Below, piece after piece: positions 13,668 through 31,692 of a stretch of 37,085 nucleotides of DNA. The stretch lies in contig JAFTKF010000148.1 of assembly GCA_017453405.1 (NCBI GenBank), positions 1 through 37,085 on the forward strand, in the 5' to 3' direction. The notes beneath the pieces are model-generated. The model saw nothing but the letters and a program-made list of their open reading frames with translations, ran no database searches and was not told the DNA's origin. Position numbers and translations under genes: made by a program. The stretch is from Clostridia bacterium (lineage in GTDB: Bacteria > Bacillota > Clostridia > Oscillospirales > CAG-272). The number at the start of each line of letters is the position of its first letter. Positions within the stretch are counted from its first letter, which is position 1.

Positions 13668-13682
13668 GGAGGCGATATCCCC

Positions 13683-15626: not shown

Positions 15627-15627
15627 C

Positions 15628-15816
15628 GCCCATTTCAAAAGTTTTTGCAGACACAATATCTCTATCACCCATTTTCAAAAGGTTTTAGAAAGGTGGAGCT
15701 GTAAACAGCTCCGAAAAATTTTTCAAAAAGTTTACCAAGAAAAACAAACCCTTTATCGCAAATCAGCCGTTGTCAAACGCTCACAATTCCTTCAAGCGTT
15801 TGACAACGGCGCATTT
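15628..15816 (+). repeat. Repeat C, copy 2: conserved 3'-UTR element
   Basis: Starts 2 nt after the stop at 15626. The 39-bp units start at 15629 and 15668. Hairpin ii lies at 15695-15712 and hairpin i at 15766-15810. Confidence 0.8.
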
Positions 15817-15823
15817 TTATTTT
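15766..15823 (+). terminator. Rho-independent terminator (hairpin i of repeat C)
   Basis: gccgttgtcaaacgc (15766-15780) pairs with gcgtttgacaacggc (15796-15810), followed by gcatttttatttt. Confidence 0.8.
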
Positions 15824-15925
15824 CCCTGCGGTAACTGTTTAGACGATCGATATTTCATACCCCAAACAGACACTTCGCATCCTACACCTCATCAGTAGGC
15901 TATGCTTTCCCATCTAGGAAACGCT

Positions 15926-15975
15926 GATTCAATCAGAAATTACCGCAGAAGCAAAAAGCAAGAAAATTGTAGGGA
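15926..15975 (+). repeat. Intergenic repeat B, copy 2
   Basis: gattcaatcagaaattaccgcagaagcaaaaagcaagaaaattgtaggga, in direct orientation relative to 6063-6113. Confidence 0.8.
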
Positions 15976-15990
15976 CAGGCGTCCTCTGTC
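15970..15990 (+). repeat. 21-nt module tagggacaggcgtcctctgtc, direct copy
   Basis: Matches the reverse complement of 6190-6210 at 19 of 21 positions. Confidence 0.7.
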
Positions 15991-16135
15991 AAGAGCGACA
16001 ACTTGAATTGTTTCTTTTCAAGATCAAGCGCATTTCATCATCGTTTTCTCAAGAGGAATCCTCGGCATATGACCGCAGACTTCGCACTATCTCACCGTAT
16101 CTTGTCAAAAATCTCGTCATATCCATTCAAATCCC

Positions 16136-16164
16136 TTGACAAAGGCTTTAAAATGGTGTATACT
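16136..16164 (+). promoter_or_regulatory. Consensus promoter TTGACA-17-TATACT
   Basis: ttgaca at 16136-16141 and tatact at 16159-16164. Confidence 0.7.
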
Positions 16165-16195
16165 GTGACAAGAGTGATAAGTTAGGAGAAACCGT

Positions 16196-17125
16196 ATGTG
16201 TTTGACAACCCATTTTGATTTTGAATCACAACCTGCCAAAGAGCAGAACCTTTCCTTTTCCGACAGCTCGTGGGAATTTGACCTGAAGGGGGTCTTTTTT
16301 AATCCCACCGCTTCGCCCTTCTGCACACCTGAGGGCAGCTATACCGCTCTTGCACTGCTCTTGTCCGACCAATGTCCCTTTTCGGTCAGGATCGTGCGCT
16401 TTGACGATACCTGCCGTTACCGTGTCACGGAAGAGCGTGTGTTCGGCGGATCGCTCCTTCGCCAGATCAACGATGTCAGAGATTATGTCGATATGCTCGT
16501 TGCAGACAGCACGAATGTCACCTACCCCGAAAACGCTCTGCACGAAGTGATTCTCAACGCGATCCTGCACCGCGATTACACGCTTTCTGCCGATATTTTC
16601 ATCAAGCTGTATCCCGATCAGCTGGAAATTCTCTCCCCCGGCGGTCTTTGTGAAGGGCTGACGGGCGAGGATATGGCAATGGGACTTTCCGTCTGCCGCA
16701 ATCCGCAGCTTTTCGAAATCTTCAAGCAACTGAAGCTTACCACCGGCTGTGGCGTCGGACACCGTATCCTGCTGGATGCCTACCGCAGCTTGAATACCCC
16801 CACGATCACCTGCAGTCCCCGTGCCGTCAGGGTCACGATGCCGCACGCCAATAAGGAAGTGCCCCCGCTTGCCAAAGCGCCCGCAGCACCCGTCAAGGAA
16901 GCGCCCGCAGTACCCGAAAAGACCGACACCGTCACCCCCTATACCTCCGAGGACGAAACCGTTCTCAGAATGGTACGCGCGTCGGGCAGTATCACCCGTC
17001 AGGATGTGGAAAAGGCATTCGGAACAAGCCCTTCCACCGCTTCCCGACTTCTGCGCCGTATGGCAGAAGCAGGCATCCTGAAGCCCATCGGTTCGGCAAG
17101 AAGCACCAAGTATATCTTGGCATAA
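16196..17125 (+). CDS. Putative regulator with an HATPase_c_4-like (RecG-C-like) domain and a C-terminal winged HTH; apparently lacks the usual N-terminal AlbA_2/Schlafen module
   Basis: RBS AGGAGA. Motifs: ENALHEVILNAILHRDY, LEILSPGGL, RNPQLFEIFKQLKLTTGCGVGHRILLDAY. The C-terminus ETVLRMVRASGSITRQDVEKAFGTSPSTASRLLRRMAEAGILK is MarR-like. Confidence 0.6.
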   Translation: MCLTTHFDFESQPAKEQNLSFSDSSWEFDLKGVFFNPTASPFCTPEGSYTALALLLSDQCPFSVRIVRFDDTCRYRVTEERVFGGSLLRQINDVRDYVDMLVADSTNVTYPENALHEVILNAILHRDYTLSADIFIKLYPDQLEILSPGGLCEGLTGEDMAMGLSVCRNPQLFEIFKQLKLTTGCGVGHRILLDAYRSLNTPTITCSPRAVRVTMPHANKEVPPLAKAPAAPVKEAPAVPEKTDTVTPYTSEDETVLRMVRASGSITRQDVEKAFGTSPSTASRLLRRMAEAGILKPIGSARSTKYILA

Positions 17126-17161
17126 CGCACCAAATCTCGCCATATGCAGTCATTTTTACAT

Positions 17162-17210
17162 AAAACACGCCATATCCCGTCAAATTGACGGGATATGGCG
17201 TGTTTTATTT
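17162..17210. terminator. Bidirectional rho-independent terminator between convergent genes
   Basis: aaaacacgccatatcccgtc (17162-17181) pairs with gacgggatatggcgtgtttt (17187-17206), with A/T runs on both sides. Confidence 0.85.
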
Positions 17211-17225
17211 TCCACTACGCACCAA

Positions 17226-17786
17226 TTATGTCAATTGCTGTGCCGCTTGGCGTATGACCTCGGTAACCGCTTGGGCACAGCAGGCAATCCCTGCCTCGGA
17301 CAGATGAATGGTATCCTCACAGATATAGGCATCAAGATCCTGCGCTACCAGCGAATACAGATCGTTGATCCAAACGCCGCGTGCGCGAAGAAGCGGAACG
17401 ATCCTGTCGTTATACCGCTTGATGTCCTCGTTTTTATTAAAGGTATTTTTCGGACTGACAGGTGTTGTGGTCGCGAAAATAACCCTGTCATAGCGTGACA
17501 GCAAAATGTCGGCAATCCGAAGCATCGTTGCCTCATATTCCTCTTCCGAGGTGAACAGCGCACCGTCCCCGAACAGCTCGCAGGAATCCCACAAGCCATT
17601 GTTCCAATGCACGATACGGCTTCCCGCCATATCCCCCTGCCAATCATACAAACAGCGAAGGGTATACTTGGCATATCTGCCGTTGTCCCCCGAGGAAAAG
17701 ATCGAGAACTCCTCCCCGAGAAGCTCTCCCACCTTCGGCGCATATTGCATCCGTATCGAATCGCCAAGAAATGCCACTTGAATCAT
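17226..17786 (-). CDS. SGNH/GDSL hydrolase family esterase
   Basis: Start at MIQVAFLGDSI (ATG at 17784-17786) after RBS AAAGGGG. The track start at 17831 lies upstream of the -10 box. Motifs: FLGDS, WNNGLWD, DTIHLSEAG. Confidence 0.8.
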   Translation of the reverse strand: MIQVAFLGDSIRMQYAPKVGELLGEEFSIFSSGDNGRYAKYTLRCLYDWQGDMAGSRIVHWNNGLWDSCELFGDGALFTSEEEYEATMLRIADILLSRYDRVIFATTTPVSPKNTFNKNEDIKRYNDRIVPLLRARGVWINDLYSLVAQDLDAYICEDTIHLSEAGIACCAQAVTEVIRQAAQQLT

Positions 17787-17821
17787 TGTAAACGCCCCTT
17801 TCGAACGGTTATTCTGATCGT

Positions 17822-17850
17822 ATTCTACCATACAACACGGGTAAAGTCAA
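17822..17850 (-). promoter_or_regulatory. Promoter TTGACT-17-TAGAAT
   Basis: On the minus strand, ttgact is the complement of 17845-17850 and tagaat is the complement of 17822-17827. Confidence 0.6.
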
Positions 17851-19362: not shown

Positions 19363-19391
19363 TTGAAATTGATGGGGGTTTGTGATATACT
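19363..19391 (+). promoter_or_regulatory. Promoter TTGAAA-17-TATACT
   Basis: ttgaaa at 19363-19368 and tatact at 19386-19391. The promoter lies inside the longest-ORF extension, so the real start codon must be downstream. Confidence 0.65.
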
Positions 19392-19473: not shown

Positions 19474-20697
19474 ATGAAAAACAGTGCTGATATGACCACG
19501 CTGTCACGGTATATGTACCGCACCGCGACAAGCAAAAAGCTGTCCTTGCAGAATGCCGTCAAGCTGCTGCAAAGCACCGCCTACGTGCGCACAACTAAGG
19601 ATATTCTGATGAAATTTTCCCGTCTTGACCCCGCAAAGGAGTCCGAGCTGCAGGCATATGTCTTGGATGCCTTGCTGAAGACATCGGATGCGATCGGTCG
19701 GGACAGTCTGCGCCGTAAGGTCAGCATCTGGATCAAGGAAGGCGGCGCGATCGGCAAGGATGCCGCCATTCAGCTTGCCTTTGCCTTCGGGCTTTCGCAC
19801 GATCAGGCAGATGAGCTTTTGAAATACACACGCTCCGAAGGCTTTCACTGGCGCGATCCCGAAGATATCGTGTTCAGCTATGCCCTTCTCAAAGGGCTGT
19901 CCTATCAAAAGGCGTGTGAGCTGAAGGACCGTATGGCGCAAGCAGGCTTGCTAAGCCCCGTGGACACGGGCGCGGAAGCCGCGGTGGCAAGAACCGAGCA
20001 GATCCGGCAAAAAGCAGAGAATCTTGACAGCGAAGAGGAATTGATCGCCTTTCTGACAGCCAACCAAAGCAGCTTGGGCACGCTTCATAACACGGCGTAT
20101 GGCTACTTCACACAATACCTGAAGCTCCTGCAAGAGCCTGAGCCGGACCATTCCTTTACCGATGCGTGGTTTTCGGAGCAAGACGGCAAAAAGCCCTCGG
20201 AGGAATACGACGCGTTCGGTCGGTTTGATACCTATTCCATCCGCGATGTGCTGATCGAATACCTTCACAGCGAGCGTATTCCGAAGGAATCACGCCCCCG
20301 AAAGGACAAGCAAACGAGTGAGCGATCAGCACTGATCCTTTCCGCGATGCAAAAGAGCATCCGCAACCACTGGCCGGACGAGATCGCCCTATCCAAAATG
20401 AAAAACCGTGCGACAGATGTCACACGAAAGGTTTTGATCCTCTTATTCATAGCAACCGACGGCTATGCCGTCACCGAATATGATGAGTTTGAAACCGATC
20501 TGTCCCGCGAGGAAGAATTTGAGGATATGTACGAGCGTATGAACAATATGCTGAACGAATGCGGCTTTGCGCCCCTTGATCCCCGCGCGCCCTTTGACTG
20601 GATGATGCTGTTCTGTATGTGCGCAGGCGCAAAGGATTTTATCGATCTCCGCATTGAACGCTTCTTACAGGCAATCTTCCCCGATACGCCCCAATAA
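19474..20697 (+). CDS. Hypothetical cytosolic protein (407 aa), no domain recognised
   Basis: Start at MKNSADM, 5 nt after GGGAGA. No TM helix or signal peptide. Acidic, helical-looking sequence (…FHWRDPEDIVFSYALLKGLSYQKACEL…, …LDPRAPFDWMMLFCM…). Confidence 0.6.
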   Translation: MKNSADMTTLSRYMYRTATSKKLSLQNAVKLLQSTAYVRTTKDILMKFSRLDPAKESELQAYVLDALLKTSDAIGRDSLRRKVSIWIKEGGAIGKDAAIQLAFAFGLSHDQADELLKYTRSEGFHWRDPEDIVFSYALLKGLSYQKACELKDRMAQAGLLSPVDTGAEAAVARTEQIRQKAENLDSEEELIAFLTANQSSLGTLHNTAYGYFTQYLKLLQEPEPDHSFTDAWFSEQDGKKPSEEYDAFGRFDTYSIRDVLIEYLHSERIPKESRPRKDKQTSERSALILSAMQKSIRNHWPDEIALSKMKNRATDVTRKVLILLFIATDGYAVTEYDEFETDLSREEEFEDMYERMNNMLNECGFAPLDPRAPFDWMMLFCMCAGAKDFIDLRIERFLQAIFPDTPQ

Positions 20698-20704
20698 CCC
20701 TTCC

Positions 20705-20729
20705 CCAAGCGGAAACGCTTTTTAAAACC
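20705..20729 (+). repeat. 25-bp perfect direct repeat, left copy (ccaagcggaaacgctttttaaaacc)
   Basis: Identical to 25114-25138, and the flanking bases differ on both sides. Contains the mini-hairpin aagcg-gaa-cgctt followed by T5. Confidence 0.95.
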
Positions 20730-20767
20730 GTCAGAGACAACGTGGTATCCTACAACCGCGACGATAA

Positions 20768-20808
20768 AACCGCTCTCCCGCACAAAGGCATCTGTCGGGA
20801 GAGCGGTT
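20768..20808 (+). promoter_or_regulatory. Strong leader hairpin 10 nt upstream of the kinase-NACHT RBS
   Basis: aaccgctctcccg (20768-20780) pairs with cgggagagcggtt (20796-20808) around a 15-nt loop. No clear U-tract follows. Confidence 0.5.
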
Positions 20809-20830
20809 GTGATACACAGGAGGTGTCATT

Positions 20831-23770
20831 ATGGATCTCAGAACCGCTTTGCCAAACGGCTCGCAGTTACAGTTTCCCTCAATGACGGTAACGCTGGAAT
20901 GCGAGGTCGGGCGTGGCTCTAATGCCATCGTATACCGAGGAACGTATCCCGATCTGCAAAGCCATACGCTTCATCATATTCTGATTAAAGAACTCTTTCC
21001 CCTTCATCCCGAGGCAAGGATCTACCGAACCGAGGATGGCTCGCTTTGCTATGCGGAGGCTGAGGACTTTTTTCGCTTTCACAAGCTGAGCTTTGAGAAA
21101 GGCAATACCGTCCATCTGAAGATCTTATCGCACAGTCCCGACGGCGCAGGCGGCAATGTCAATACCTTCTCTTATAACCGCACGCTGTATACGGTGCTGC
21201 AGTATAACGGCGGCAGAAGTCTTGCCGACGAGCTTGACGCCCATACCTTCACACTCGCGCAGGTCGTCAAAGCGATGAAAGGCATTTTGTACGCGCTGAG
21301 GGATTTCCACCAAAACGGCTTTCTTCATCTGGATATCGCGCCCGACAATATTATGCTTCTCGGCACAAATGAGCGCGAGCGCATTATGCTGATCGATTAT
21401 AACAGCGCCATGGAGCAGTCGGTATGGCAAACGCATTTCAGTATCAAGCAAGGCTATTCCGCCCCCGAGGTACAGCGCGGCGATGTCGCCGCCTTTACCC
21501 CTGCCACCGATCTCTATTCGGTTGCCGCCGTCTTTTTCAGATGCATCAGGGGATATGCGCTTCAGCCCTTTGAAGTCCACCGGAAAACGCCCCCTGCCGT
21601 TTCTCACTGCAAGATCCTGCAGGGCTTGCCCGAGACCTGCATCAGTATGGTCAAAGAGATCCTGTATCGCGGCTTATCCGCGATCGGGGCAAGGCGCTAC
21701 GCTACCGTAGACGAAATGCTCGTTGCCTTTGAGGAGCTTGACGACCGCATCCAAGGTGTCGGCATTACCCATTGGGCGCTTTGGGAGGCAGGCAAGCGAA
21801 CCGTGCAAAGCTTGATTCAAAGCAACACCGCTCTTCGGTATCTGCGCGACGGGGAATCGCTCTTCCCTATGTTCACGCAGTCCGAGACCGATGGGCGAAA
21901 ATCAATGGATGCTTCCATCCGTGCGCTCACAGACGGCGAAAGCCATCTGTTCGTGAGTGCGCCCGGCGGTATGGGCAAAACCACCTCGATGCTTTATGCG
22001 CTTTTGCAGAGCAGTAAGCGCTATTCTCCCCAATCGCCTGCCATCGTGTATCTGTCGTTACACGGCGCTTGCGCGGATTCTCATACCGTTACCGATAAAA
22101 TTCTTGAAAATCTTCACTTCAAAGCCAATGTTCAAAACTACCGTGAGGCGCGTCACGCACTGCACCAACTGCTGACAAAGCCCTTGGTGCACGACGGCGG
22201 TACACGCCCTTGTGTCGTACTGTTCCTTGACGGGCTGAACGAAGTCAGCGAAGGCGTTTCCTATCTTCTTGACGAGATCGCCTCGCTTGCAAGGCTTGAC
22301 GGCATCCGACTGTACATCACCTCGCGCACCGACTGCGCGCTTGAGGGCTTTCGTCACCTGCAGCTCTCACCTCTCACGCTTGGCGAGGTACAGACCGTCC
22401 TCACACGCCATCACTTGCTGATGCCCGATTCCCCCACGATGCAAGAGCTTTTGAGAACACCGATCATGCTTTCGATGTTTCTCGGGCTTTCCGAGCAAAA
22501 CGGCACACAGCCGCAGGCAAAAAGCGGCGAGGAGCTGGTGGAAGCCTATCTCGACTCTCTTGTTCAGAAAGAGCTTGCCACTCTGCCCGAGGACAGCTCC
22601 CTGCGCCTGAAGATCGAAGTCGCCGTACAGCTTGTGCTTCCGAGAATTGCCGCAAGGCTTCAGAAATCGGGACTGCCCTGCGACGATGCCGCGCTGTTCA
22701 AGGAAAGCGCCGCCGCGTATCGCCTGATCCGCTCGCCCCTTCTCATTAAAGCCTTTCCGCAGTGGATCGGACACAAACGCACGATCCTCGACGGGATCGA
22801 ATCCGCCGACGACTGGTATGATATCCTTGTACGGAAATTACTGTGGCAACGGCTCGGACTGCTGATCAAAAACGAGCAAGGGCAATATGTGCTCGCGCAT
22901 CAGATCATCACCGACCATCTCGCGGCGGGGCATACCGCCATAAAAAAAAGGATTGTTCGCTATCAGGCGATCAAGCACAGCCTGATCGCTGTCATTTGCC
23001 TTGTGCTTGCGGGAGCGATCGCCCTCGCCTGTGTGAAGAGCGCTCCCGACCCCGCCATTCCCTATCAGGAATCTTACGCCATAACGGTATTGACCGACGC
23101 ATTGAACGCCTATCAGGTGTCAAGCCTGCAGTACAGCGCGATCCGCAAGCTGACCGATGCCCTTGCCGAAACGCCCGAGGCGTATGCCGCATCCCTTGCG
23201 GAATATGAGCATTCGTCAAAGTTTATCAGCGCCAACCTGCCCTCCGGCGCCTATCAGAGCCGAGTCGAGCTGCTTCTTGCAAGCGGCGAGGTGTTTGAAT
23301 GGACACAGCAGGAGCTGCAAACCGAAGAATATCTCCAATTATTCACCCTGATCGAAGAACGAGAGGTGCAATATGCCGATATCGTAGGCGCGTTTTCGTA
23401 TATGATGCACGATGATACCGTCTTTTCAAAATACGGCGAGGCGTATACAAAAACGGTGTCGGACCTCATCGAGCTTGATGCCGAGATCACCGCTACCCTG
23501 TATGCCATCGCCTGCCGCGCCCATTTGTACGCGGCAATGGATGCCTTTTCGCAAAGCGGCGACGAGGTCAAAGCAATGCACGTCAACAGCTGGACTGCCG
23601 TTTTAAGCGCAACCCATCCGATCAACGACCGTGTTCCCACCGAGGAAAGCCCCATTGCCTTACGCGACCGCTTGCAGAACCTTATGGGAAAACGAAAGGA
23701 TCAATACCTTAATTTACAAAGCCAAGGGGCTTATATTCTCTATCAAAATCAAAAGGAGACACCATCATGA
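20831..23770 (+). CDS. Protein kinase / NACHT (STAND) NTPase / TM helix / extracytoplasmic C-terminal domain protein
   Basis: RBS AGGAGG. Kinase motifs: VGRGSNAIVY, ILIKE, HLDIAPDN, DYN, SAPE. NACHT motifs: SAPGGMGKTT, VVLFLDGLNE, YITSR, LLRTPIMLSMF. TM helix SLIAVICLVLAGAIALACV at aa 717-735 (nt 22979-23035). Confidence 0.85.
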   Translation: MDLRTALPNGSQLQFPSMTVTLECEVGRGSNAIVYRGTYPDLQSHTLHHILIKELFPLHPEARIYRTEDGSLCYAEAEDFFRFHKLSFEKGNTVHLKILSHSPDGAGGNVNTFSYNRTLYTVLQYNGGRSLADELDAHTFTLAQVVKAMKGILYALRDFHQNGFLHLDIAPDNIMLLGTNERERIMLIDYNSAMEQSVWQTHFSIKQGYSAPEVQRGDVAAFTPATDLYSVAAVFFRCIRGYALQPFEVHRKTPPAVSHCKILQGLPETCISMVKEILYRGLSAIGARRYATVDEMLVAFEELDDRIQGVGITHWALWEAGKRTVQSLIQSNTALRYLRDGESLFPMFTQSETDGRKSMDASIRALTDGESHLFVSAPGGMGKTTSMLYALLQSSKRYSPQSPAIVYLSLHGACADSHTVTDKILENLHFKANVQNYREARHALHQLLTKPLVHDGGTRPCVVLFLDGLNEVSEGVSYLLDEIASLARLDGIRLYITSRTDCALEGFRHLQLSPLTLGEVQTVLTRHHLLMPDSPTMQELLRTPIMLSMFLGLSEQNGTQPQAKSGEELVEAYLDSLVQKELATLPEDSSLRLKIEVAVQLVLPRIAARLQKSGLPCDDAALFKESAAAYRLIRSPLLIKAFPQWIGHKRTILDGIESADDWYDILVRKLLWQRLGLLIKNEQGQYVLAHQIITDHLAAGHTAIKKRIVRYQAIKHSLIAVICLVLAGAIALACVKSAPDPAIPYQESYAITVLTDALNAYQVSSLQYSAIRKLTDALAETPEAYAASLAEYEHSSKFISANLPSGAYQSRVELLLASGEVFEWTQQELQTEEYLQLFTLIEEREVQYADIVGAFSYMMHDDTVFSKYGEAYTKTVSDLIELDAEITATLYAIACRAHLYAAMDAFSQSGDEVKAMHVNSWTAVLSATHPINDRVPTEESPIALRDRLQNLMGKRKDQYLNLQSQGAYILYQNQKETPS

Positions 23771-25011
23771 AGCACCGTTTTCTCGTCCTCTGCGTGCTTT
23801 TGCTTCTTTTCGCTGTGACGCTCTCCCTCGTCGCTTGCAACGATACCCCTGCGACAAGCACGCCCACCACAAGCGCGTCCTCCGTAAGCACACCCGAAAC
23901 CACCGAAGCACCCCCTTCGACAGATGCCGTCGATGAAGCCTTCCGACGCACGTTTGCCGCAGACTGGTCTAAGTATCTGGTTCACAAGGAAAGCCTGTGC
24001 CTTGATATGTCCTGGATGCTTTCGTATGTGGAAGCCTTTTATGAACAGCCAAGCCTTTCCACACTGACCAACGCAAGAGCCGCCCTCGGTTCTCTGGAAG
24101 CACATTGGGCAGAGCTCAGCTTTCCCACCTACACGCTCACGCCCGAACAGCACACCGAGCTTATCGCGGCAGGCTATGATGTGAGCGGCATATGGGAGGA
24201 AATGAATCGCTGGGAGAGCAGTATGACAGAATTTCTTGACACCTGCCAGATCCTTTTTTCCGACCTTTACTTCAACGCCTTCTTCACGCCCTCCTTTCAG
24301 GGCTGTCAAAAATATACCCAAAATGCCATCACAGGTGTGGAGATCACGCTGGAGCAATTGGCGGTATTTACCGACAACGTGATCCTTTCTCTGAAAAGCG
24401 AGACCATCAGAGACGACTTTTTGGCATTCATTCAGGAGAACACGCCTGCCGTGGCAAAGTATTTGCCCGCATTCTCCCAAACGCTTTCGGCAAATGCCGA
24501 ACGTCAGGAGGCGGTGCTCGATAAGCTGGAAGCCAATATCAACGAGCTGAACACGATCGTGGGTGAGCTTACGGTCGCGGCAGATCAGCTTGCCGATCTC
24601 TTCGCCACCAATAATATCGAACAGCTCACCGCATCGCTCGTCGATCTCGGGGACGGTTTTTGTTTCCCGCTTCCCTTCTTTGATTACAGCAAGGACACCT
24701 TCTTCTATTTCTATTCGGACGGTGACACTCAGGATATCTTCGCCCCCCAAGCACCCATCACCCTGACACCGAACCGTTTGGTGATCGAATCGGCGGTTTC
24801 CAAAGAAGACCATACAGAGTATCTTGAAATCTTACTCTTGCTCGGCTTCACCCCCGTCCTCACCGACGACAGCGATACAGCCCTCCTCTCTTACTACAAG
24901 CTTGACGACGACAACAGCGTCCTGATTGAGTGGGAAGATCAGGTGATGACCTTCATCATTGTCGGCGCGGATATTTATCCTCTCCCGCAGTACTGCTTCT
25001 ACGCTTCCTGA
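23767..25011 (+). CDS. Lipoprotein of unknown function, translationally coupled to the kinase-NACHT gene
   Basis: ATGA overlap at 23767-23770, with RBS AAGGAGA. MKHRFLVLCVLLLLFAVTLSLVAC carries a lipobox, followed by a Thr/Ser/Pro linker, then a helical region and a beta-rich tail. Confidence 0.75.
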   Translation: MKHRFLVLCVLLLLFAVTLSLVACNDTPATSTPTTSASSVSTPETTEAPPSTDAVDEAFRRTFAADWSKYLVHKESLCLDMSWMLSYVEAFYEQPSLSTLTNARAALGSLEAHWAELSFPTYTLTPEQHTELIAAGYDVSGIWEEMNRWESSMTEFLDTCQILFSDLYFNAFFTPSFQGCQKYTQNAITGVEITLEQLAVFTDNVILSLKSETIRDDFLAFIQENTPAVAKYLPAFSQTLSANAERQEAVLDKLEANINELNTIVGELTVAADQLADLFATNNIEQLTASLVDLGDGFCFPLPFFDYSKDTFFYFYSDGDTQDIFAPQAPITLTPNRLVIESAVSKEDHTEYLEILLLLGFTPVLTDDSDTALLSYYKLDDDNSVLIEWEDQVMTFIIVGADIYPLPQYCFYAS

Positions 25012-25279: not shown

Positions 25280-25702
25280 ATGAAAACGAGAACGATCGTA
25301 TGCAGCACCACTTCGGAACAGGAGATCATAAACGCCGCCAGAACCTACTTCCTCGAAGAAGGCTTTGACATTCAGGATGTCATCACCGAAAACGGCGAGA
25401 TCGGCATTCAGGCTCGCAAGAGCAGCTGGATCCGCAAATGCTCGGGCACATCCTACGCCCTGCAGGTCATTGTCAGCCATCCGTCCGAAAACCGCTATGT
25501 CGTCACCGCAGGCTGGGGCGAATGGTTTCTGAAAAGCACCGTAGCCACCTTTGCAACCTTTATCGCCCTGTGGTGGATGATCATTCCGTCCGTCGTCGGT
25601 ATGGTCAATCAGGCAAAGCTGCCGAACGCGTGCCTTGACCGTATGAGCGCAACCGTCGCAGAGCAAAATCCGCAGTGCCGGATCTACATTGACGCAAAAT
25701 AA
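25280..25702 (+). CDS. Small membrane protein, paralog A (soluble N-domain, TM segment, Cys-containing tail)
   Basis: RBS AAGGAGA. Shares TENGE..QARK.SW.R...G.SYA, AGWG.W, IP..VG..NQ..LP..CLD and P.CRIY with the 25931-26347 product. Confidence 0.7.
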   Translation: MKTRTIVCSTTSEQEIINAARTYFLEEGFDIQDVITENGEIGIQARKSSWIRKCSGTSYALQVIVSHPSENRYVVTAGWGEWFLKSTVATFATFIALWWMIIPSVVGMVNQAKLPNACLDRMSATVAEQNPQCRIYIDAK

Positions 25703-25902: not shown

Positions 25903-25930
25903 CCCGATCAAAAGAAAAAGGAGACTACCG

Positions 25931-26347
25931 ATGAAAAAAATAATTGTCAAATGCAACACCACCGAGGAAGAGATCCTGCAAAGCGCCACCGCCTATTATG
26001 AAAGCCTCGGCTACGAAACCCAGCAGTGTGTGACCGAAAACGGCGAGACTTGTATGCAAGCCCGAAAAACAAGCTGGGTCCGCAACGCCACAGGCATGTC
26101 CTATGCCATTCGCCTGGTCGTTCGCCGCACCAAGGACAACAGCTACGAGCTGAGCGCGGGATGGGGCAAGTGGGCGGATAAGGTCATCGTGGGAGGCATC
26201 GCCGTGTTCATCGCCTTCGGCGTTCTTGTGATCCCCACCTGCGTCGGCATCATCAATCAGATCAGACTGCCCAAGCAATGCCTCGACTATGTTTCCCAAG
26301 CATTGAAGCTTGCGCATCCCGAATGCAGAATCTATCAGGTGGTATAA
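25931..26347 (+). CDS. Small membrane protein, paralog B
   Basis: Start at MKKIIVKCNTTEEEIL after RBS AAGGAGA. The track's upstream extension overlaps the micro-ORF. Confidence 0.7.
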   Translation: MKKIIVKCNTTEEEILQSATAYYESLGYETQQCVTENGETCMQARKTSWVRNATGMSYAIRLVVRRTKDNSYELSAGWGKWADKVIVGGIAVFIAFGVLVIPTCVGIINQIRLPKQCLDYVSQALKLAHPECRIYQVV

Positions 26348-26443: not shown

Positions 26444-26472
26444 TTGCTTTTCGGGGAATCTTGTGATAGAAT
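26444..26472 (+). promoter_or_regulatory. Promoter TTGCTT-17-TAGAAT
   Basis: ttgctt at 26444-26449 and tagaat at 26467-26472. This excludes the track start at 26444. Confidence 0.55.
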
Positions 26473-26512
26473 AAAGAAAACTCCGACGACCCAATCAAAA
26501 GGAGAGGCAACT

Positions 26513-29239
26513 ATGAACGATCAGAAAACCCTAACCGATACGACCCCAAGAGCCACAGGACTTTCTGCCTATGCGCTACGGGTAAACGGACTGCACGCAC
26601 CGATGGGAATCGACAGCGAGATCCGTTTTTCCTGGCTTCTGCGCGGCGAAGGCTATCATCGATCGCAAAGCGCCTATCGCATTCTGGTTTCCTCTTCTCT
26701 AAAAAAGGCAGAATGTCTGTGCGGCGACCTTTGGGATTCCGGAAAAACCGAAGATGACAGCAATTACGATATTGCCTATCGCGGCAAGCCCCTGACATCC
26801 CGCAGCCGTTATTACTTCCGCGTTGCCGTTTGGGATGAAAACGGCAGGGCGGGAGACTTTGGCGAGATCGGCGTGTTTGAAACCGGTATCCTGCATCCGA
26901 GCGAATGGCAGGGCATCTGGATCACCGCGCCCCGTGAGGGGGATGGGACGGAATCAGCCCCGATGTTCAGAAAAACCTTTTTGCTAAGAAGCACGCTTGC
27001 GTCTGCCCGCCTTTATCTTTCGGGCTTGGGGCTGTATGAAGTCAAAATCAACGGCGCTTTTGCAGATGATACCGTTTTGAATCCCGCCCATACGCAATAC
27101 GAGGACACCGTTCACTATCGGGTATTCGATCTCAGTACCCTTCTGACAAGCGGGAGCAATGTCCTGACCGTAGAGCTTGGTGACGGTTTTTATCACAACG
27201 ATGTGGGTGTATGGAATTGGCAAAACGCCGTTTGGCGGGATCGTCCGAAGCTTCGCGCGATGCTGTATCTGACTTACGCGGACGGTACGGAGGATACCAT
27301 CGTCACCGATGAAAGCTGGCGGGTGAAGACCGACGGTCCGATCCTTTCAAACAATATTCTTTTGGGCGACCGTTATGATGCAAGACGGGAGGAGGGCGGT
27401 TGGCTGAATGCCGATTTTGACGACAGCCATTGGGCGTTTGCCACCGCCGCCGCAGAGCCGCAAGGCAAGCTTGTTTTCGGAGAAATGGAGCCTATGCGCC
27501 GCCTGCAAAGCTTTGTGCCCGAGGTGAGTCGCCTGAGTGACGGCACGTATCTGATCAAAGCCCCCGTGATGACGACCGGCTGGGTGAAGCTTTGCCTCGA
27601 CGCCCCCGAAGGCGAAACGATCACGGTCACCTACGGCGAACAGCTGCAAAAGGACGGCTATCTGAAAAAGCCAACCGATTTCGGTATTGCCTTTCAGATC
27701 GATCACTATACCGCCAAGGGTGTCAAGGGAGAATGCTATGAGCCGAAGTTCAGTTATAAAGGCTATCGCTATGTGCAGGTAGAAAACTACAGCGGCAGTC
27801 TTACGCCCGAGGATGTCACCTGTTATTTCATTGCCAACGATGTGGCATCAAGTGCCACGCTTGAAACGGGAAACGCGCTGATCAACCGCCTGCACTTAGC
27901 AATGCGCCGCACCGTGCATAACAATCTGCAGGGCAAGCCCACCGATACCCCCGTATGGGAGAAGAACGGTTGGACGGGGGATTTTCACGTATCCTTGGAA
28001 TCCATCTGCTTCAACTACGCCATCTTGCCCTTCACCCTCAAATTCCTGAAGGATCTGGAGGATGCCGCCGATGAAAGGGGCGTTGTCCCCGTGATCGCGC
28101 CCACGGCAAACTGGGGGCTGGGTAATCAGGTGGTATGGAACGGCGTTCTGATCAATGCGGTATATGAGATGCTATGCTTTTACGGCTCTCGCAGTACGGT
28201 GGAACGCTTCTGGCAAGCGATGACAAGGCAGGTGGCGGCATATCTTTGTGAGCTTGAAAAACGGGATCTGATCTGGCAAAACGATCAGCTTGCCGACTGG
28301 GTAGCGCCCTTTGGCGGTATGGACCCCGATGCCCCCACTGCCGCCTGCCCCTCGGAAGGCTCTTCGATCTGCGGAACGGGTTATGTCTATCTGATCCTTT
28401 CGCGAATGGCGGAAATGGCAAGCCTTTTGGATAAGCAGGAAGAAGCGGCATTTTACAAAAAAAGCGCCGAGAGACTTTACACCGCCTTCCATAACGCCTT
28501 CTATAACGCCGAAAAGGGCATATACGAAAGTGCCTTCTGGGACGGTTCTTCCTCCCGTAGCCGATACCGTCAGACATCAAACCTAGTCCCCCTTGCCTTC
28601 GGGCTCTGCCCCGAGGAGCACCGCGGTCGCGTGATCGAAAATCTGGTGCGTGATATTGCCGCCAAAAACAATCACCTTGACACCGGTATGGTGGGAACGA
28701 AGCTGTTACTCCCGATCCTCAGCGAGGCAGGACATCACGAGCTTGCCGTAGACATCCTCACCAACACCACCTATCCCTCTTGGGGCTACTGGATCGAGCA
28801 GGGCTCGGATACCACGTGGGAGGGCTTTGAAAACACCGCGCGCTCGCACAATCACTATTTTCTCGGTACATACGACGAATGGCTGTTCCGCTATCTTGCG
28901 GGCGTTCACGATATGACCGATGGCTTCAAGACCGTAACACTCTTTCCGAGAATCACACCGCGCGTGGGTTATGTCCGTTGTCACTTACAAACGGTGCGAG
29001 GCGAGCTTGTCAGCGACTGGGAGCTGCAAAAAGACAGCTCTCTTCTGATAAGACTTCGCATACCGATCGGAACAACCGCAAGGGTGATCCTTCCCTGCCG
29101 GGATGCTTCCTTTCTGAAAACACAAGGCGCTCTTTTCTCCCCCGATGCATACGCTTTTGAAAACAACCGCCTTGCCCTGACGCTGGAGAGCGGCAACTAC
29201 CGTTTTCTTATTACCCCCGAGGGTGTCGTCACGGGCTGA
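26513..29239 (+). CDS. GH78 alpha-L-rhamnosidase
   Basis: Start at MNDQKTL after RBS AAAGGAGAG. LRVNGLHAPMGIDSEIRFSWLL is a typical N-terminus for this family. Also GKPTDTPVWEKNGWTGD and an (alpha/alpha)6 catalytic region. Confidence 0.85.
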   Translation: MNDQKTLTDTTPRATGLSAYALRVNGLHAPMGIDSEIRFSWLLRGEGYHRSQSAYRILVSSSLKKAECLCGDLWDSGKTEDDSNYDIAYRGKPLTSRSRYYFRVAVWDENGRAGDFGEIGVFETGILHPSEWQGIWITAPREGDGTESAPMFRKTFLLRSTLASARLYLSGLGLYEVKINGAFADDTVLNPAHTQYEDTVHYRVFDLSTLLTSGSNVLTVELGDGFYHNDVGVWNWQNAVWRDRPKLRAMLYLTYADGTEDTIVTDESWRVKTDGPILSNNILLGDRYDARREEGGWLNADFDDSHWAFATAAAEPQGKLVFGEMEPMRRLQSFVPEVSRLSDGTYLIKAPVMTTGWVKLCLDAPEGETITVTYGEQLQKDGYLKKPTDFGIAFQIDHYTAKGVKGECYEPKFSYKGYRYVQVENYSGSLTPEDVTCYFIANDVASSATLETGNALINRLHLAMRRTVHNNLQGKPTDTPVWEKNGWTGDFHVSLESICFNYAILPFTLKFLKDLEDAADERGVVPVIAPTANWGLGNQVVWNGVLINAVYEMLCFYGSRSTVERFWQAMTRQVAAYLCELEKRDLIWQNDQLADWVAPFGGMDPDAPTAACPSEGSSICGTGYVYLILSRMAEMASLLDKQEEAAFYKKSAERLYTAFHNAFYNAEKGIYESAFWDGSSSRSRYRQTSNLVPLAFGLCPEEHRGRVIENLVRDIAAKNNHLDTGMVGTKLLLPILSEAGHHELAVDILTNTTYPSWGYWIEQGSDTTWEGFENTARSHNHYFLGTYDEWLFRYLAGVHDMTDGFKTVTLFPRITPRVGYVRCHLQTVRGELVSDWELQKDSSLLIRLRIPIGTTARVILPCRDASFLKTQGALFSPDAYAFENNRLALTLESGNYRFLITPEGVVTG

Positions 29240-29245
29240 ATACAC

Positions 29246-29293
29246 CAAAAACCAATCCCATCAAGCCTCGGCTTGTATGCGGATTGGTTTTTG
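29246..29293. terminator. Bidirectional terminator between the convergent rhamnosidase genes
   Basis: caaaaaccaatcc (29246-29258) pairs with ggattggtttttg (29281-29293), with an inner hairpin caagcc/ggcttg. Confidence 0.75.
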
Positions 29294-29295
29294 TA

Positions 29296-31440
29296 TTACA
29301 CGAGCGATTCTTTGGATATGACCGTTTTGCCGACGGGCGCAACGGTACGTTTATTTTCAAGAATCACCTCAATGGGAAACTCGGTTTCTACCGTAACGGT
29401 GCCGTCTTCCACGCGCACAGAAAGGCTTCCCTGCGAAAGCGTAAGACTTCCCTGCGCATAGGCAAGCCCCGTATTCAGACTGGGCGCAAGAAACACGTTG
29501 CCGCCCGACAGCTTCACGCCGAGAATTCCGGTAAACAGCGTGTGCACGCAACCGCCGAACATATGGTGATTGTGGCTTGCGTGAACAGAGTCCATACATT
29601 CCCACAAGGTGGTCGCGCCGTGCTTGCGCATAAAGTGAAAGCCCACCGTTTCGCTGTCGCTTCCCATCAGCTTGACGGCAAGATCCCCCCGTCCAAGCGC
29701 AAAGAGCTGATCGCAAAGGATCTCGGTTGCAAGAAAGCCGGTGTCAAAGGTATCCCTCGCTTCATAGCGGCGCAGTAAGGCTTCCCGAAGCCCGTCTCCC
29801 GTAAGCCCTGCCCAAAGCGCAAAGGCATCCGCGCCCTGTTCGCCCTCAAGATAACTGCCGTTCTGATAAAAAGCGTCAAACAACGCCTTTTTGTGAAGCT
29901 CCTTTTGCCCCTGCAGTTCGGGCGTGTCGATCGAAAGCCTTGCGGATATTTCCTCCATCAGGGAAATCGCCTTCACAAGACAAGCGGTATTGACAAATTC
30001 CGCAGGCAATCGGGTCTCGGAAGGGGCGCACCAGTCGCCAAGACACCAACCGCCCGCTTCCTCGCGCACCACAAGTCCGTTTTCACAGCGGCTTTCAAGA
30101 TACGAAAGCCAGCGAAGCATTGAAGGAAACGCGCCTCGCAAAAGCGCCTCGTCGCCGAACACCTTGTCATATTGATACACAACGAATACAATGGCACAGC
30201 CCCATCCGCCCGGACCGCCACCGCCGCCGCCAAAGGGAGCGGTATGCTGTACGTGTCCGCTCTTTTGGCACTGACAGTCCAGAATATCGTCGATCCACTT
30301 GCGGTAAGCTTCGCGGGAACGAAGCGTCAGCATTCCCGCAAGAGACGTAACCTGACCGTCTCCCGTATAGCCCAAGCGCTCTCTGTGCGGACAGTCGGAC
30401 GGGATCGAGCCGTGAAAATTGGACAAAAGCGAGCGAAGAAAGGCGTCGTACAGCCAATTGACCGTCTCATTGGAGCAGGAAAACGAGGATGTGACGGGAA
30501 GGTCGGTATGAATGACCTCCACCGTAAGCGAAAGCACCTGACAGTTTCCCTCCACCTTGAAATAGCGAAAGCCGTGATAGGCAAATTCGGGGCAAAGCGT
30601 CTGTTCGCCGCCACTCAAAATATACCGATCCTGCTGCAGCTGAGGCATACCGCTTTGACAGCGGTATCCGCCGCCGCACGAGGCGTGATCAAGATCGTTT
30701 TCACAAATCTCCTCGGCGTGGAAAACGCTGACGGTATCGCCTGCGCTTCCGCGGACGGTCAAGCAGACTCTGCCGCTCACATTTTCTTTGGCATCATATA
30801 AGCCTCCGCCCAAGGACGCGGGAACGATATGCCGAATCACACGATCGGGTGGGCAGGTCTGCCGAACAAGCGTACCCAAGCGGCTTCCGTCAAACAAATA
30901 CGTGGGCGCTTCGGGAAGGGGCGAGCGGAACATTCGGGTATCGATCACATCCCCCAAAAAAAGATTGCTTTCCAAGATCGGATACACGAAGCAGTCCTCA
31001 CTGCCATCCGAATATACCGTTTGGCGAGTTCCGGAAGCGTCCTCGATCTCTATCGTAAACCACGCGCAAAGTGTGTCGCTGTAGTCGGTCTTTCCCTCGG
31101 CGATCCGCTCCGGCTGACGAAACCATCCGTTTCCCACCACCACTTCGAGCGTATTTTCACCCGAGGAGACAAACGCCGTGATATCGTATTCAAGATACAA
31201 CACCTTGTGCGTCAGGGTATCGTGAATGGGGTAGGTAAAGCTTGCCGTATCTCTCGGCATATAATCGGTCTGCGCGGGCGTGAACAGATCCCGACTCACG
31301 CGCTGTCCGTTGACGGTAAAAAAGAAATACCCAAGCCCCGTGATCGAAAGCCGCACCCGTTTCGGGGAATCGACAGTAAAGCGCTTGACAAACATCGGGG
31401 TCGTCACCTCGGGACTTGTTGTGATCCATTTTCCTATCAT
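29296..31440 (-). CDS. GH78 alpha-L-rhamnosidase (second, shorter paralog)
   Basis: Start at MIGKWITTSPEV (ATG at 31438-31440), downstream of the promoter at 31471-31499. Motifs: LSITGLGYFFFTVNGQRV, DCPHRERLGYTGDGQ. Confidence 0.85.
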   Translation of the reverse strand: MIGKWITTSPEVTTPMFVKRFTVDSPKRVRLSITGLGYFFFTVNGQRVSRDLFTPAQTDYMPRDTASFTYPIHDTLTHKVLYLEYDITAFVSSGENTLEVVVGNGWFRQPERIAEGKTDYSDTLCAWFTIEIEDASGTRQTVYSDGSEDCFVYPILESNLFLGDVIDTRMFRSPLPEAPTYLFDGSRLGTLVRQTCPPDRVIRHIVPASLGGGLYDAKENVSGRVCLTVRGSAGDTVSVFHAEEICENDLDHASCGGGYRCQSGMPQLQQDRYILSGGEQTLCPEFAYHGFRYFKVEGNCQVLSLTVEVIHTDLPVTSSFSCSNETVNWLYDAFLRSLLSNFHGSIPSDCPHRERLGYTGDGQVTSLAGMLTLRSREAYRKWIDDILDCQCQKSGHVQHTAPFGGGGGGPGGWGCAIVFVVYQYDKVFGDEALLRGAFPSMLRWLSYLESRCENGLVVREEAGGWCLGDWCAPSETRLPAEFVNTACLVKAISLMEEISARLSIDTPELQGQKELHKKALFDAFYQNGSYLEGEQGADAFALWAGLTGDGLREALLRRYEARDTFDTGFLATEILCDQLFALGRGDLAVKLMGSDSETVGFHFMRKHGATTLWECMDSVHASHNHHMFGGCVHTLFTGILGVKLSGGNVFLAPSLNTGLAYAQGSLTLSQGSLSVRVEDGTVTVETEFPIEVILENKRTVAPVGKTVISKESLV

Positions 31441-31470
31441 AGCACACGATCCTTTCTTTGCTTTGTCATC

Positions 31471-31499
31471 ATTATACCACCCCGATCGCCCCTTGTCAA
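31471..31499 (-). promoter_or_regulatory. Consensus promoter TTGACA-17-TATAAT
   Basis: On the minus strand, ttgaca is the complement of 31494-31499 and tataat is the complement of 31471-31476. Confidence 0.7.
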
Positions 31500-31580
31500 T
31501 TCCCAAAGCCATAGCCGCCATCCCAAAGATCATCACCACTTGCGGCAAATCCGCTCTCGGCAAAACTGAATGATACACAC

Positions 31581-31622: not shown

Positions 31623-31692
31623 TATCGGTTTCTTCACACAGAAAAGCTTTGCCGCTGCCATAAGAGAGCCGCTGTTTTCTCTTTCCTGAGGA

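Follow-up and report, generated by a model that had tools for sequence, protein, structure and literature searches.

The window, by which we mean the whole 37,085-nucleotide stretch of Clostridia DNA that we analysed, contains a cassette of three co-oriented genes (19474..25011, + strand), conserved in gut Clostridia and previously uncharacterised: up, a kinase-NACHT-TM-ectodomain gene, and a gene for an exported partner. The first, up (19474..20697, +), encodes a soluble all-alpha protein of 407 amino acids and has the ribosome-binding site (RBS) GGGAG 6 nt before its ATG at 19474; the second (20831..23770, +) encodes 979 amino acids, with AGGAGG 7 nt before the ATG; and the third (23767..25011, +) encodes a 414-residue lipoprotein, with AGGAGA 7 nt before the ATG. 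The latter two reading frames are those of a first-pass annotation of this DNA, and the ORF list and sequence confirm both, along with the ATGA at 23767-23770, read directly in the sequence, where the kinase gene stop overlaps the lipoprotein gene start. That annotation described a two-gene cassette, however, and overlooked up. A promoter-like site ~80 nt 5' of the first cassette gene (19363..19391, +; TTGAAA-17-TATACT with an extended TG) is a 10/12 match in a consensus scan and, as a pattern match only, carries no functional weight. At the junctions of the three genes the + strand shows no terminator-like site; with this single promoter-like site and good RBSs at the cassette genes, we read the three as a putative operon.

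The cassette recurs far beyond chance: we scored 597 homologues of the 979-residue protein, the best 120 of which are near full-length (877-1363 amino acids), and the sources named for some of these 120 are Clostridia, Oscillospiraceae, Oscillibacter, Blautia and Eubacteriales. The kinase-NACHT family was found at 76 genomic loci. The up gene lies directly 5' of the kinase gene and is co-oriented with it in 45/45 core loci, and it is also upstream in L082, L084 and L085 (three independent look-ups, same gene order). The lipoprotein had been proposed as a dedicated partner, and it is indeed linked to the kinase-NACHT gene in 48 of 50 loci, being adjacent in 43 and fused in five, with the same 4-nt overlap as in the window in 11. 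The partner is found only with the helical ectodomain type, and up also accompanies paralogues with beta-propeller ectodomains. Neither a phosphatase nor an FHA partner was observed among the cassette genes.

The 979-residue protein does have the four-part architecture first described for it (kinase, NACHT, one TM helix and a helical tail); every motif listed lies at the residues assigned to it when re-read in the sequence, and profile searches recover both the kinase and, across the family, the NACHT domain. A Hanks-type Ser/Thr kinase domain of non-RD (HLD) type (20888..21760, +; aa ~20-310) matches Pfam Pkinase at 61.3 bits (cut-off 31.7; 1.2e-16), with its G-loop at 26-35, K53, HLDIAPDN at 166-173, DYN at 189-191 and SAPE at 210-213. 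All 31/31 homologues retain G27, G29, K53, D168, N173, D189, E213 and D227, together with S204 and [ST]210 of the activation segment, and the domain is predicted to be cytosolic and catalytically competent. It is followed by a NACHT-like STAND NTPase module (21764..22966, +; aa 312-712) made up of a nucleotide-binding domain, a helical domain and a winged-helix domain with a conserved His. Walker A (376-385), Walker B (462-471), YITSR (495-499) and LLRTPIMLSMF (540-550) are all present, and 31/31 homologues keep K383, T384, D467, E471, R499, P544 and H690 unchanged. The window's own NTPase matches only NPHP3_N and AAA_22, both below Pfam cut-offs, and PDB sequence profiles give weak ORC1 and Avs4 matches only; among 17 family members, PF05729 NACHT matches 15 (best 1.3e-7) and nSTAND_NTPase5 matches 13, and a remote tblastn match lands on an annotated 'NACHT domain-containing protein'. 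From these residues and profiles, the module looks like an active, NACHT-type switch.

A single predicted TM helix (22979..23035, +; aa 717-735), with the basic stretch KKRIVRYQAIK just before it, is the sole segment with KD19>=1.6 in the 979-residue protein. A TM segment occurs at the same position in 31/31 homologues, with hydrophobicity but not sequence retained, and in all 31 the preceding 15 residues carry a net charge of +2 to +7, with a net charge no higher than +1 on the far side; the segment is kept in beta-propeller paralogues as well. The partner, for its part, has the signal peptide, lipobox and S/T/P linker noted earlier: signal peptide and lipobox (LVA|C, Cys24) occupy 23767..23838 (+), and the S/T/P-rich tether (aa 25-54) and mature domain (aa 55-414), of an orphan family, occupy 23839..25011 (+). 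An N-terminal export signal is present in 48/50 stand-alone partner homologues, with a strict lipobox in at least 26, and the partner is thus predicted to be exported, either lipid-anchored or secreted. Six independent fusions of the form kinase-NACHT-TM-ectodomain-partner contain one TM only, and in them the entire mature domain of the partner follows the ectodomain via a 39-75-residue linker without a hydrophobic segment. Because the partner domain follows the ectodomain in these six proteins without a second TM, the tail (aa 736-979) would lie outside the cell. The N-in/C-out topology originally proposed is therefore supported by hydropathy, flanking charge bias and the fusions, in keeping with export of the partner; and since partner and ectodomain are one polypeptide in some species, they probably belong to the same extracytoplasmic assembly.

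The predicted extracytoplasmic, fast-evolving ectodomain (23036..23767, +; aa 736-979) is modelled by AF2 as an all-helical bundle (pLDDT 96.3, pTM 0.92), which agrees with its description as a helical-looking tail of ~245 residues. This model has no significant match in the PDB by Foldseek (best E 0.56), and a sequence-profile search of the PDB returned nothing. Profile searches found no enzymatic or wall-binding domain in ectodomain or partner, no periplasmic-binding-protein signature in the partner, and no partner relatives in Pfam, NCBIfam, PADLOC or PDB. The fold suggested to be shared by ectodomain and lipoprotein is rejected by profile-profile comparison (hhalign probability 0.35%, E 0.17). 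Up to four paralogues occur per genome, in which the helical ectodomain is swapped for beta-propeller-like regions and the kinase-NACHT-TM part is kept; the helical ectodomain first described is thus real but just one of several alternatives, which suggests exchangeable sensors on a common receptor family. Median pairwise identity is 49% for the kinase, 42% for the NTPase and 38% for up, compared with 24% for the ectodomain and 21% for the partner, so that the external modules appear to diverge twice as fast as the cytosolic modules and up is better conserved than either external module. Mirror-tree correlation of ectodomain and partner is weak and non-specific (partial r 0.33, versus 0.51 for up and partner).

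The up family comprises 1,495 representatives at E<=1e-3, none annotated. Its AF2 model (pLDDT 87.6, pTM 0.86) has 21 helices and no match in PDB or BFVD, no fold or motif family was recognisable in profile and structure searches, and no TM segment is predicted. T174, which follows a flexible loop, is invariant in 72/72 members, and many polar residues are invariant as well (H125, R127, H205, N206, R312, D369, R371, D375 and W376).

The cassette shares features with several known systems. Like bNACHT proteins, it joins a NACHT-type STAND module to an N-terminal enzymatic domain. Kibby et al. (bioRxiv 10.1101/2022.07.19.500537) include Pkinase among bNACHT N-terminal domains and define a 'TM regions' class of C-termini with predicted intramembrane or periplasmic sensing; the initial premise, which made every bacterial NACHT protein cytosolic with a repeat sensor, was thus too strong. 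The TM class is described as having multiple TM regions, whereas the cassette protein has one TM and a folded ectodomain; about four entries in the survey's table are from Clostridia by term search, and of the rows shown, three (NACHT+NCH3, NACHT+SNaCT, NACHT) are without a kinase, while the two kinase rows are eukaryotic. The cassette further differs from bNACHT systems in its dedicated exported partner and third conserved cytosolic protein, and its family has no known antiphage phenotype. Avs proteins share the tripartite layout, in which an effector is joined to a STAND NTPase and a variable sensor and oligomerisation brings about activation. They use cytosolic, TPR-like sensors to recognise phage terminase or portal proteins, and nucleases or comparable enzymes as effectors; similarity of the cassette NTPase to Avs is marginal (Avs4 PDB E 0.11; PADLOC Avs4 in 2/17 members at 1.8e-4). 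PASTA-type Hanks kinases (PrkC/PknB/StkP) likewise link an N-in Ser/Thr kinase through a single TM to a ligand-binding domain outside the cell, and the beta-propeller ectodomain of M. tuberculosis PknD parallels the beta-propeller paralogues of the cassette family. In contrast to these kinases, the cassette protein has no PASTA domains (NCBIfam PknB_PASTA_kin 42.8 versus a 450-bit cut-off), has a ~400-residue NACHT module in place of the juxtamembrane linker between kinase and membrane, and has obligatory partner genes on both sides. TorS-TorT and LuxQ-LuxP also pair a membrane sensor bearing a helical periplasmic domain with a separately exported partner encoded alongside, and TorS sensor-domain structures (3i9w, 3o1i) are among the weak, non-significant Foldseek matches of the ectodomain (E 1.6-2.8, TM about 0.13-0.2); those systems, however, are two-component histidine kinases. 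Finally, M. tuberculosis PknK and the actinobacterial kinase-STAND conflict proteins fuse a Ser/Thr kinase to a STAND or AAA+ switch, but such fusions are cytosolic and mostly actinobacterial, and their kinase domains are in many cases inactive (Kaur et al. 2020, PMC7159879), whereas the cassette kinase has intact residues, Clostridia hosts and a sensor end predicted to be extracytoplasmic.

We modestly favour reading the locus as a three-gene, outside-in transmembrane receptor STAND kinase that senses environmental or envelope conditions. We propose that the ectodomain and partner together would bind or sense an external or envelope cue, altering how the single TM helix packs or clusters; only ~20 residues separate this helix from the NACHT winged-helix domain before it. 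The NACHT module would then swap nucleotide and oligomerise, gathering the N-terminal kinases for trans-activation, and the activated kinases would phosphorylate targets. Foremost among candidate targets or adaptors would be the strictly co-encoded soluble up, with its invariant Thr174; that up serves the kinase as substrate or adaptor is our guess. We infer that signalling runs outside-in rather than inside-out, and TM-type bacterial NACHT proteins are themselves predicted to sense periplasmic signals (Kibby et al., bioRxiv 10.1101/2022.07.19.500537).

The same architecture could instead serve immunity, which we regard as possible but rather unlikely. Here the ectodomain and partner would form a surface-surveillance, NLR-like defence that detects adsorbing or ejecting phages, attacks on the envelope or toxins of competitors, with the NACHT-activated kinase causing growth arrest or abortive infection and up acting as effector or antitoxin-like brake. 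A STAND NTPase with an N-terminal enzyme and a variable sensor follows Avs/bNACHT logic, and the rapid divergence of external modules and multiple paralogues with swapped ectodomains fit this reading too. About 10% of immediate neighbours match defence models (LeoA/BC-like, SIR2, mad3, pVip-like); locus L003 is flanked by RNA-repair and HSP70 conflict-type genes, in L004 a second NACHT gene adjoins the cassette, in L085 Terminase_4 and ANT genes follow the cassette at a distance of 0.7-1.5 kb, and 9/72 up members weakly match the Rv0078B antitoxin. The best PADLOC kinase matches are to the defence kinases PD-T4-6 (1.7e-19) and mad6 (7e-19), but these appear to be generic Hanks-kinase similarity, the NTPase matches to PDC-S49 and Avs4 are weak, and the cassette belongs to no PADLOC system, in line with the initial view that the pair lies outside any characterised defence family. 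The window context is one of carbohydrate-degrading enzymes (glycoside hydrolases, esterases) rather than a defence island, contexts at other loci are mixed, without any integrase or transposase recurring among the neighbours, and no copies of the cassette were found on phages, viral contigs or plasmids. To our knowledge, moreover, there is no precedent for a STAND defence protein that senses infection from the outer side of the membrane. The defence half of the initial suggestion of a signalling or defence module is not established by these genomic contexts.

Improbable in our judgement is a reversed or anchoring arrangement, in which the cytosolic part responds to a cue inside the cell, up being the sensor or adaptor, and the TM, ectodomain and lipoprotein act as a localisation or output device (a wall or septum tether, or envelope remodelling). 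The strict linkage of up, its presence regardless of ectodomain type, and its many invariant polar residues, which suggest a specific binding or catalytic site, would suit such a role, and a trans-acting cytosolic partner is plausible where the NACHT winged-helix abuts the membrane without an intracellular sensor domain. Yet the variable C-terminus of a STAND protein is normally its sensor, and here the variable, exchangeable, fast-evolving parts are the ones predicted to be outside; beta-propeller or helical ectodomains with an exported binding partner resemble ligand-binding modules of TorS/TorT type (the Foldseek echoes being non-significant), and neither ectodomain nor partner has an enzymatic or wall-binding domain. 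Least credible of all, and very improbable, is that the hydrophobic segment is a buried helix of a cytosolic PknK/MalT-like kinase-STAND protein beside an unrelated lipoprotein: cytosolic fusions of this kind are known in actinobacteria (Kaur et al. 2020, PMC7159879), but the hydrophobicity kept without sequence conservation, the charge asymmetry in 31/31 homologues, the exported partner family, its C-terminal fusion to the tail in six proteins with no hydrophobic segment between, and the near-absolute gene linkage all speak against it.

Between the two outside-in roles, we lean toward environmental or envelope sensing over dedicated phage defence for this receptor STAND kinase. Sensing by NLR-type switches is commonly assumed to be confined to the cell interior. 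In the cassette, an NLR-type switch fused to a kinase would expose its sensing end on the outer side of the cell, next to a secreted partner.

The kinase-NACHT protein and the lipoprotein encoded beside it are two parts of a conserved three-gene cassette. The first-pass annotation had placed their reading frames exactly (20831-23770, 979 aa, and 23767-25011, 414 aa, both on the forward strand), the ATGA overlap of stop and start can be read in the sequence, and the residue numbers it assigned to the kinase and NTPase motifs are all correct. Its pairing of kinase-NACHT protein and partner stands, but its view of a module of only two genes does not: a ~400-aa gene that we call 'up' (19474-20697, forward, 407 aa in the window) immediately precedes the kinase-NACHT gene, in the same orientation, in 45/45 loci. 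Our HMM-iterated analysis drew on metagenomic loci and on 76 genomic loci found in GTDB species representatives, and gave 53 non-redundant loci of the window type, in which a single reading frame encodes kinase, NTPase and helical ectodomain; neighbours were counted in those loci with long enough flanks. The linkage of partner to kinase-NACHT gene proposed from the window is general: in 50 loci the partner is directly downstream in 43, fused in five, and 1-3.6 kb downstream in the remaining two, and 11 loci share the window's 4-nt overlap. Three further look-ups, starting from 'up' homologues or a fusion protein, confirm the gene order, and no other gene family recurs near the cassette in more than nine loci. 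In the window, which comes from a metagenome-assembled genome in which the kinase-NACHT protein is named 'hypothetical protein IJW46_04155', a promoter-like site (19363-19391) lies upstream of 'up', whose start at 19474 follows a GGGAG ribosome-binding site at 6-nt spacing, and a scan found no terminator-like site within the cassette.

Several other elements accompany individual copies of the cassette. We rejected as core components a recurrent 186-aa membrane protein (nine loci) and a 140-aa protein (five loci). The former, predicted to be membrane-embedded, is encoded downstream on the same strand (for example L001 11062-11625, L004 10519-11100 and L052 13549-14166) and is absent from the window. 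The latter is represented in the window by two paralogous genes immediately downstream of the cassette (25280-25702 and 25928-26347, both forward), whose products have a soluble N-terminal half, a C-terminal hydrophobic segment and no Pfam match; relatives lie near the cassette in L004, L040, L067 and L076, and the family might be an accessory of sporadic occurrence. The window's spacer from 'up' to the kinase gene holds a perfect 11-bp GC-rich inverted repeat (20770-20807; ccgctctcccg / cgggagagcgg, 16-nt loop), 10 nt ahead of the kinase ribosome-binding site and lacking a T-tail, and the surrounding 76-nt region has a minimum free energy of -34.6 kcal/mol (z = -5.0). This hairpin was discarded as a conserved element, with a median z of -1.1 across loci and z <= -3 in 4/40. 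The corresponding spacer in an uncultured Blautia (L013 8679-9040) is exceptionally long at 362 nt, with a minimum free energy of -152 kcal/mol (z = -9.3), and may represent either structured RNA or the insertion of a repeat element.

The N-terminal domain of the window protein scores 61.3 bits for Pfam PF00069 (Pkinase; E 1.2e-16), where the cut-off is 31.7. When 31 homologues with 36-59% identity to the window protein are aligned, G27, G29, K53, D168, N173, D189, E213 of the APE motif and D227 prove invariant, and within the activation segment so do S204 and [S/T]210. The DFG motif reads DYN with its aspartate (D189) retained, and the catalytic loop has HLD in place of HRD, making this a non-RD kinase. 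From this conservation the domain looks like a catalytically competent Hanks-type Ser/Thr kinase. Its PADLOC and NCBIfam matches (PD-T4-6, mad6, MkoA, LanL and PknB) reflect generic kinase-domain likeness and fall far under every equivalog cut-off. The protein differs from PASTA kinases in that NCBIfam NF033483 (PknB_PASTA_kin), whose cut-off is 450 bits, scores 42.8 and aligns with nothing beyond the kinase region, and Pfam and PDB sequence-profile searches found no PASTA repeats in the ectodomain. One homologue from an uncultured Oribacterium (P0088, locus L041) carries a triple tandem ~27-aa repeat (IYPAGVSLSQDSERSKATLTDEP...) at aa ~355-430, between the kinase and Walker A, that breaks its NTPase HMM match in two.

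Taken across its members, the kinase-NACHT family appears to be NACHT-like, an assignment we base on family-wide profile matches and on motifs. The window NTPase by itself stays below Pfam cut-offs (NPHP3_N 19.5-22.4 bits, cut-off 24.8; AAA_22 and AAA_16 likewise sub-threshold). Across the family, profile searches match PF05729 NACHT in 15/17 members (best 1.3e-7), nSTAND_NTPase5 in 13/17, NPHP3_N in 8/17 and NB-ARC in 3/17, and a remote tblastn match falls on a protein annotated NACHT. Walker A (GGMGKTT), Walker B (DGLNE; D467, E471), the sensor-1 arginine R499 ([ST]SR), P544 (TP[LIM]MLS) and H690 (HQII-EYL) are invariant or nearly so in the 31 homologues; we take Walker A (GxxGxGK[ST]), Walker B (hhhhDGhDE-like, with a second acidic residue; here LLLDGLNE), the sensor-1 arginine, a helical-domain PLxL and the winged-helix histidine to be NACHT motifs. 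PDB sequence-profile searches with the NTPase return weak matches only (ORC1, 7.5e-3; Avs4, 0.11).

The NTPase is followed by a single predicted membrane span. Each of the 31 homologues has one segment with a Kyte-Doolittle (19-residue) score of at least 1.6, at a constant alignment position (aa ~715-745), and in this segment hydrophobicity is kept while sequence varies. Net charge in the 15 residues before it is +2 to +7, and after it at most +1. Decisive evidence that the tail lies outside the cell comes, at the level of sequence, from natural fusions of the partner onto the ectodomain C-terminus (loci L026, L030, L035, L048 and L066, and the metagenomic protein P0061): these match the entire mature-domain HMM, join it through a 39-75-aa linker without a hydrophobic segment, and keep the single predicted span. 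As a separate protein the partner thus depends on a signal peptide, yet in the fusions it follows the transmembrane helix, which places the ectodomain tail outside. Together with the co-occurrence of the two genes, the fusions indicate that ectodomain and partner are physically and functionally coupled.

We scored as lipoproteins those sequences with a K/R-containing n-region, a hydrophobic h-region and a lipobox [LVI][ASTVI][GAS]C. The window partner, whose N-terminus reads MKHR-FLVLCVLLLLFAVTLS-LVAC, has all three features and is thus a predicted bacterial lipoprotein (Lgt/Lsp substrate). Among 50 stand-alone partner homologues, 48 carry an N-terminal export signal, with a strict lipobox in at least 26 and other signal peptides in 22. 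No relatives of the partner were found in Pfam, NCBIfam, PADLOC or the PDB, nor did a Pfam scan of 40 members reveal any recurrent weak match; two apparent relatives from a PDB profile search, 3k4x and 5i8l, were treated as spurious, with no stretch passing by itself. A fold common to ectodomain and lipoprotein, suspected by eye from the window, was rejected for want of support in an hhalign comparison of two 40-sequence profiles (probability 0.35%). An AF2 model of the ectodomain is a bundle of long helices (pLDDT 96.3, pTM 0.92), with nothing significant in the PDB by sequence profile and no Foldseek match there with E < 0.3. The TorS sensor, the chemoreceptor 4HB domain and AhlB come up only at Foldseek E > 0.5, which is non-significant; the first two are analogies at most.

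The 'up' protein is predicted from sequence to be soluble, is without annotation and has many invariant polar residues. It has 225 relatives among 90% clusters, and a 50% library yields 1,495 representatives at E <= 1e-3; nearly all are stand-alone proteins of 360-450 aa, and no fused domains were found in the longer homologues (474-585 aa). The AF2 model has 21 helices (pLDDT 87.6, pTM 0.86); sequence profiles find nothing significant in the PDB, and Foldseek finds no match with E < 0.3 in the PDB or BFVD. Echoes of XRE-HTH and CI-repressor folds are non-significant and have analogy value only, and an identity with the Rv0078B antitoxin (9/72 members by Pfam scan, best E 0.0038) was not accepted. 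Thr174 is invariant in 72/72 members and comes after a variable, lower-confidence loop, which makes it a candidate phospho-acceptor.

Among the 76 genomic loci the kinase-NACHT family occurs solely in Clostridia sampled from gut and rumen, and within it the external parts diverge most. Over 45 loci, median pairwise identity is 49% for the kinase, 42% for the NTPase, 38% for 'up', 24% for the ectodomain and 21% for the partner, and in 988/990 pairs conservation is lower for the ectodomain than for the NTPase; mirror-tree analysis with partial correlation gives a weak and non-specific signal of co-evolution between ectodomain and partner. Paralogues of 1,555-1,879 aa keep kinase, NACHT and the single predicted span, and have in place of the helical ectodomain 730-1,110 aa with PQQ_2/BamB-like and WD40-like beta-propeller signatures. 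They are without the partner gene; 'up' is present beside many of them, sometimes downstream. Several genomes hold two to four loci, including UBA3386 (L025, L062, L065, L079) and RUG12263 (L053, L068, L070), and L054 is a tandem pair.

We lean toward the cassette encoding a receptor that senses cues from the environment or the envelope. The main alternative is that it acts in immunity, which we consider unlikely. Several properties do recall immune systems: the layout of STAND, effector and variable sensor, the fast evolution of the external parts, the expansion of paralogues, and PADLOC matches in ~10% of immediate neighbours, including dynamin/LeoA-like, SIR2, mad3 and pVip-like proteins. 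One copy sits in a setting that is conflict-island-like, with RNA-repair and HSP70 conflict genes around it: a cluster of RNA-ligase, two NADAR, HD+AAA_33 and methyltransferase genes on one side and of AAA and HSP70 genes on the other (L003 1-4474 and 10160-14889). Another is followed, 0.7-1.5 kb downstream and in the opposite orientation, by genes for Terminase_4 and an ANT antirepressor (L085 7395-8212), which suggests a prophage border beside that copy. Against an immune role, the cassette belongs to no PADLOC system, in keeping with the first-pass annotation, which could assign the architecture to no described system: in PADLOC-DB v2, 'up' and the lipoprotein have no matches, the kinase domain alone accounts for PD-T4-6, mad6 and MkoA, and the NTPase module reaches only weak PDC-S49 (6/17) and Avs4 (2/17) matches. 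Neighbours across loci are heterogeneous (123 Pfam families among 134 proteins) with no recurrent mobile-element genes, and searches of phage genomes, IMG/VR contigs and plasmids found no relatives. In the window the neighbours are ordinary metabolic genes: the cassette is flanked at 9250-17831 and 26444-37042 by densely packed genes for carbohydrate-active enzymes, namely a SASA/GDSL/GH115_C esterase, a GH63-like MGH1 protein, two GH78 rhamnosidases, a GH43+Laminin_G protein and a GH32 protein, and also by a DUF454 membrane protein gene, and the window holds no integrases or known defence genes. Carbohydrate-active enzyme genes show no consistent linkage to the cassette in other loci.

Two neighbouring genes deserve separate mention. 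At 34718-35686 (reverse) the window encodes a protein in which BspA-type leucine-rich repeats (LRR_5, 2.7e-54) are paired, unusually, with an N-terminal domain resembling the Mor transcription activator, and the closest well-assembled relative (L004/L005) has a gene for a second, unrelated NACHT/NPHP3_N protein of 1,271 aa ~3 kb upstream of the cassette (1-2749).

The idea of a membrane-associated bacterial NACHT protein is not new. Kibby et al. (bioRxiv 10.1101/2022.07.19.500537) catalogue Pkinase N-termini in bacterial NACHT proteins and make a general prediction of transmembrane-type NACHT sensors, which corrects the first-pass premise that bNACHT proteins are cytosolic; among the Clostridia entries listed by a term search of their representative table, none carries a kinase. 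Kinase effectors of actinobacterial conflict systems are for the most part catalytically dead (Kaur et al. 2020, PMC7159879). Our literature search on kinase-NACHT and transmembrane STAND proteins found no description of a single-pass kinase-NACHT protein that carries a folded ectodomain and is accompanied by an exported partner and 'up', and the three-gene system, the evidence for its topology and its orphan partners appear to be undescribed.

What the analysis shows of this putative receptor is its domain order, intact catalytic sites, single predicted span, exported partner and obligatory 'up' gene. To our knowledge, all mechanistically understood STAND/NLR proteins sense their ligands in the cytoplasm, and the sensor domain of a STAND/NLR protein normally packs directly on the nucleotide-binding module. 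With a sensor across the membrane, joined by a single helix, activation must differ from that of known STAND/NLR proteins, and by analogy with receptor kinases it probably proceeds through clustering. We propose that the assembly of ectodomain and partner senses an extracytoplasmic cue. Since the transmembrane helix begins only ~20 residues past the winged-helix histidine motif, clustering or re-packing of these helices is the simplest route of signal transfer; such a ligand- or partner-dependent change would license nucleotide exchange and oligomerization of the NACHT module, and the oligomers would gather kinases for trans-activation. First in line after the kinase, as its substrate, adaptor or effector, would then come 'up'. 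We infer from this a mechanism that joins the logic of receptor kinases to that of STAND switches.

A bolder form of the immune reading, which we hold to be doubtful, is that the cassette encodes the first outward-looking NLR/STAND immune receptor, a single polypeptide that unites an NLR with a receptor kinase for pattern recognition at the cell surface, whose kinase is fired through NACHT oligomerization and for which 'up' is a new kind of downstream effector. If so, contact with a phage or an attack on the envelope would be sensed, ahead of entry or while it takes place, by the fast-evolving pair of ectodomain and lipoprotein or, in the paralogues, by the beta-propellers. For the receptor of environmental or envelope cues that we favor, as for this alternative, the interest lies in a family that occurs widely in Clostridia of the gut and rumen, with 597 kinase-STAND protein clusters scored, has exchangeable ectodomains, and brings together three orphan protein families, two of them with confident models and no PDB relative. 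Its study bears both on STAND/NLR mechanism and on signaling in gut commensals: solving how it works would provide a new signaling or immunity paradigm for abundant commensals, and a tractable bacterial model of a NOD module driven through the membrane.
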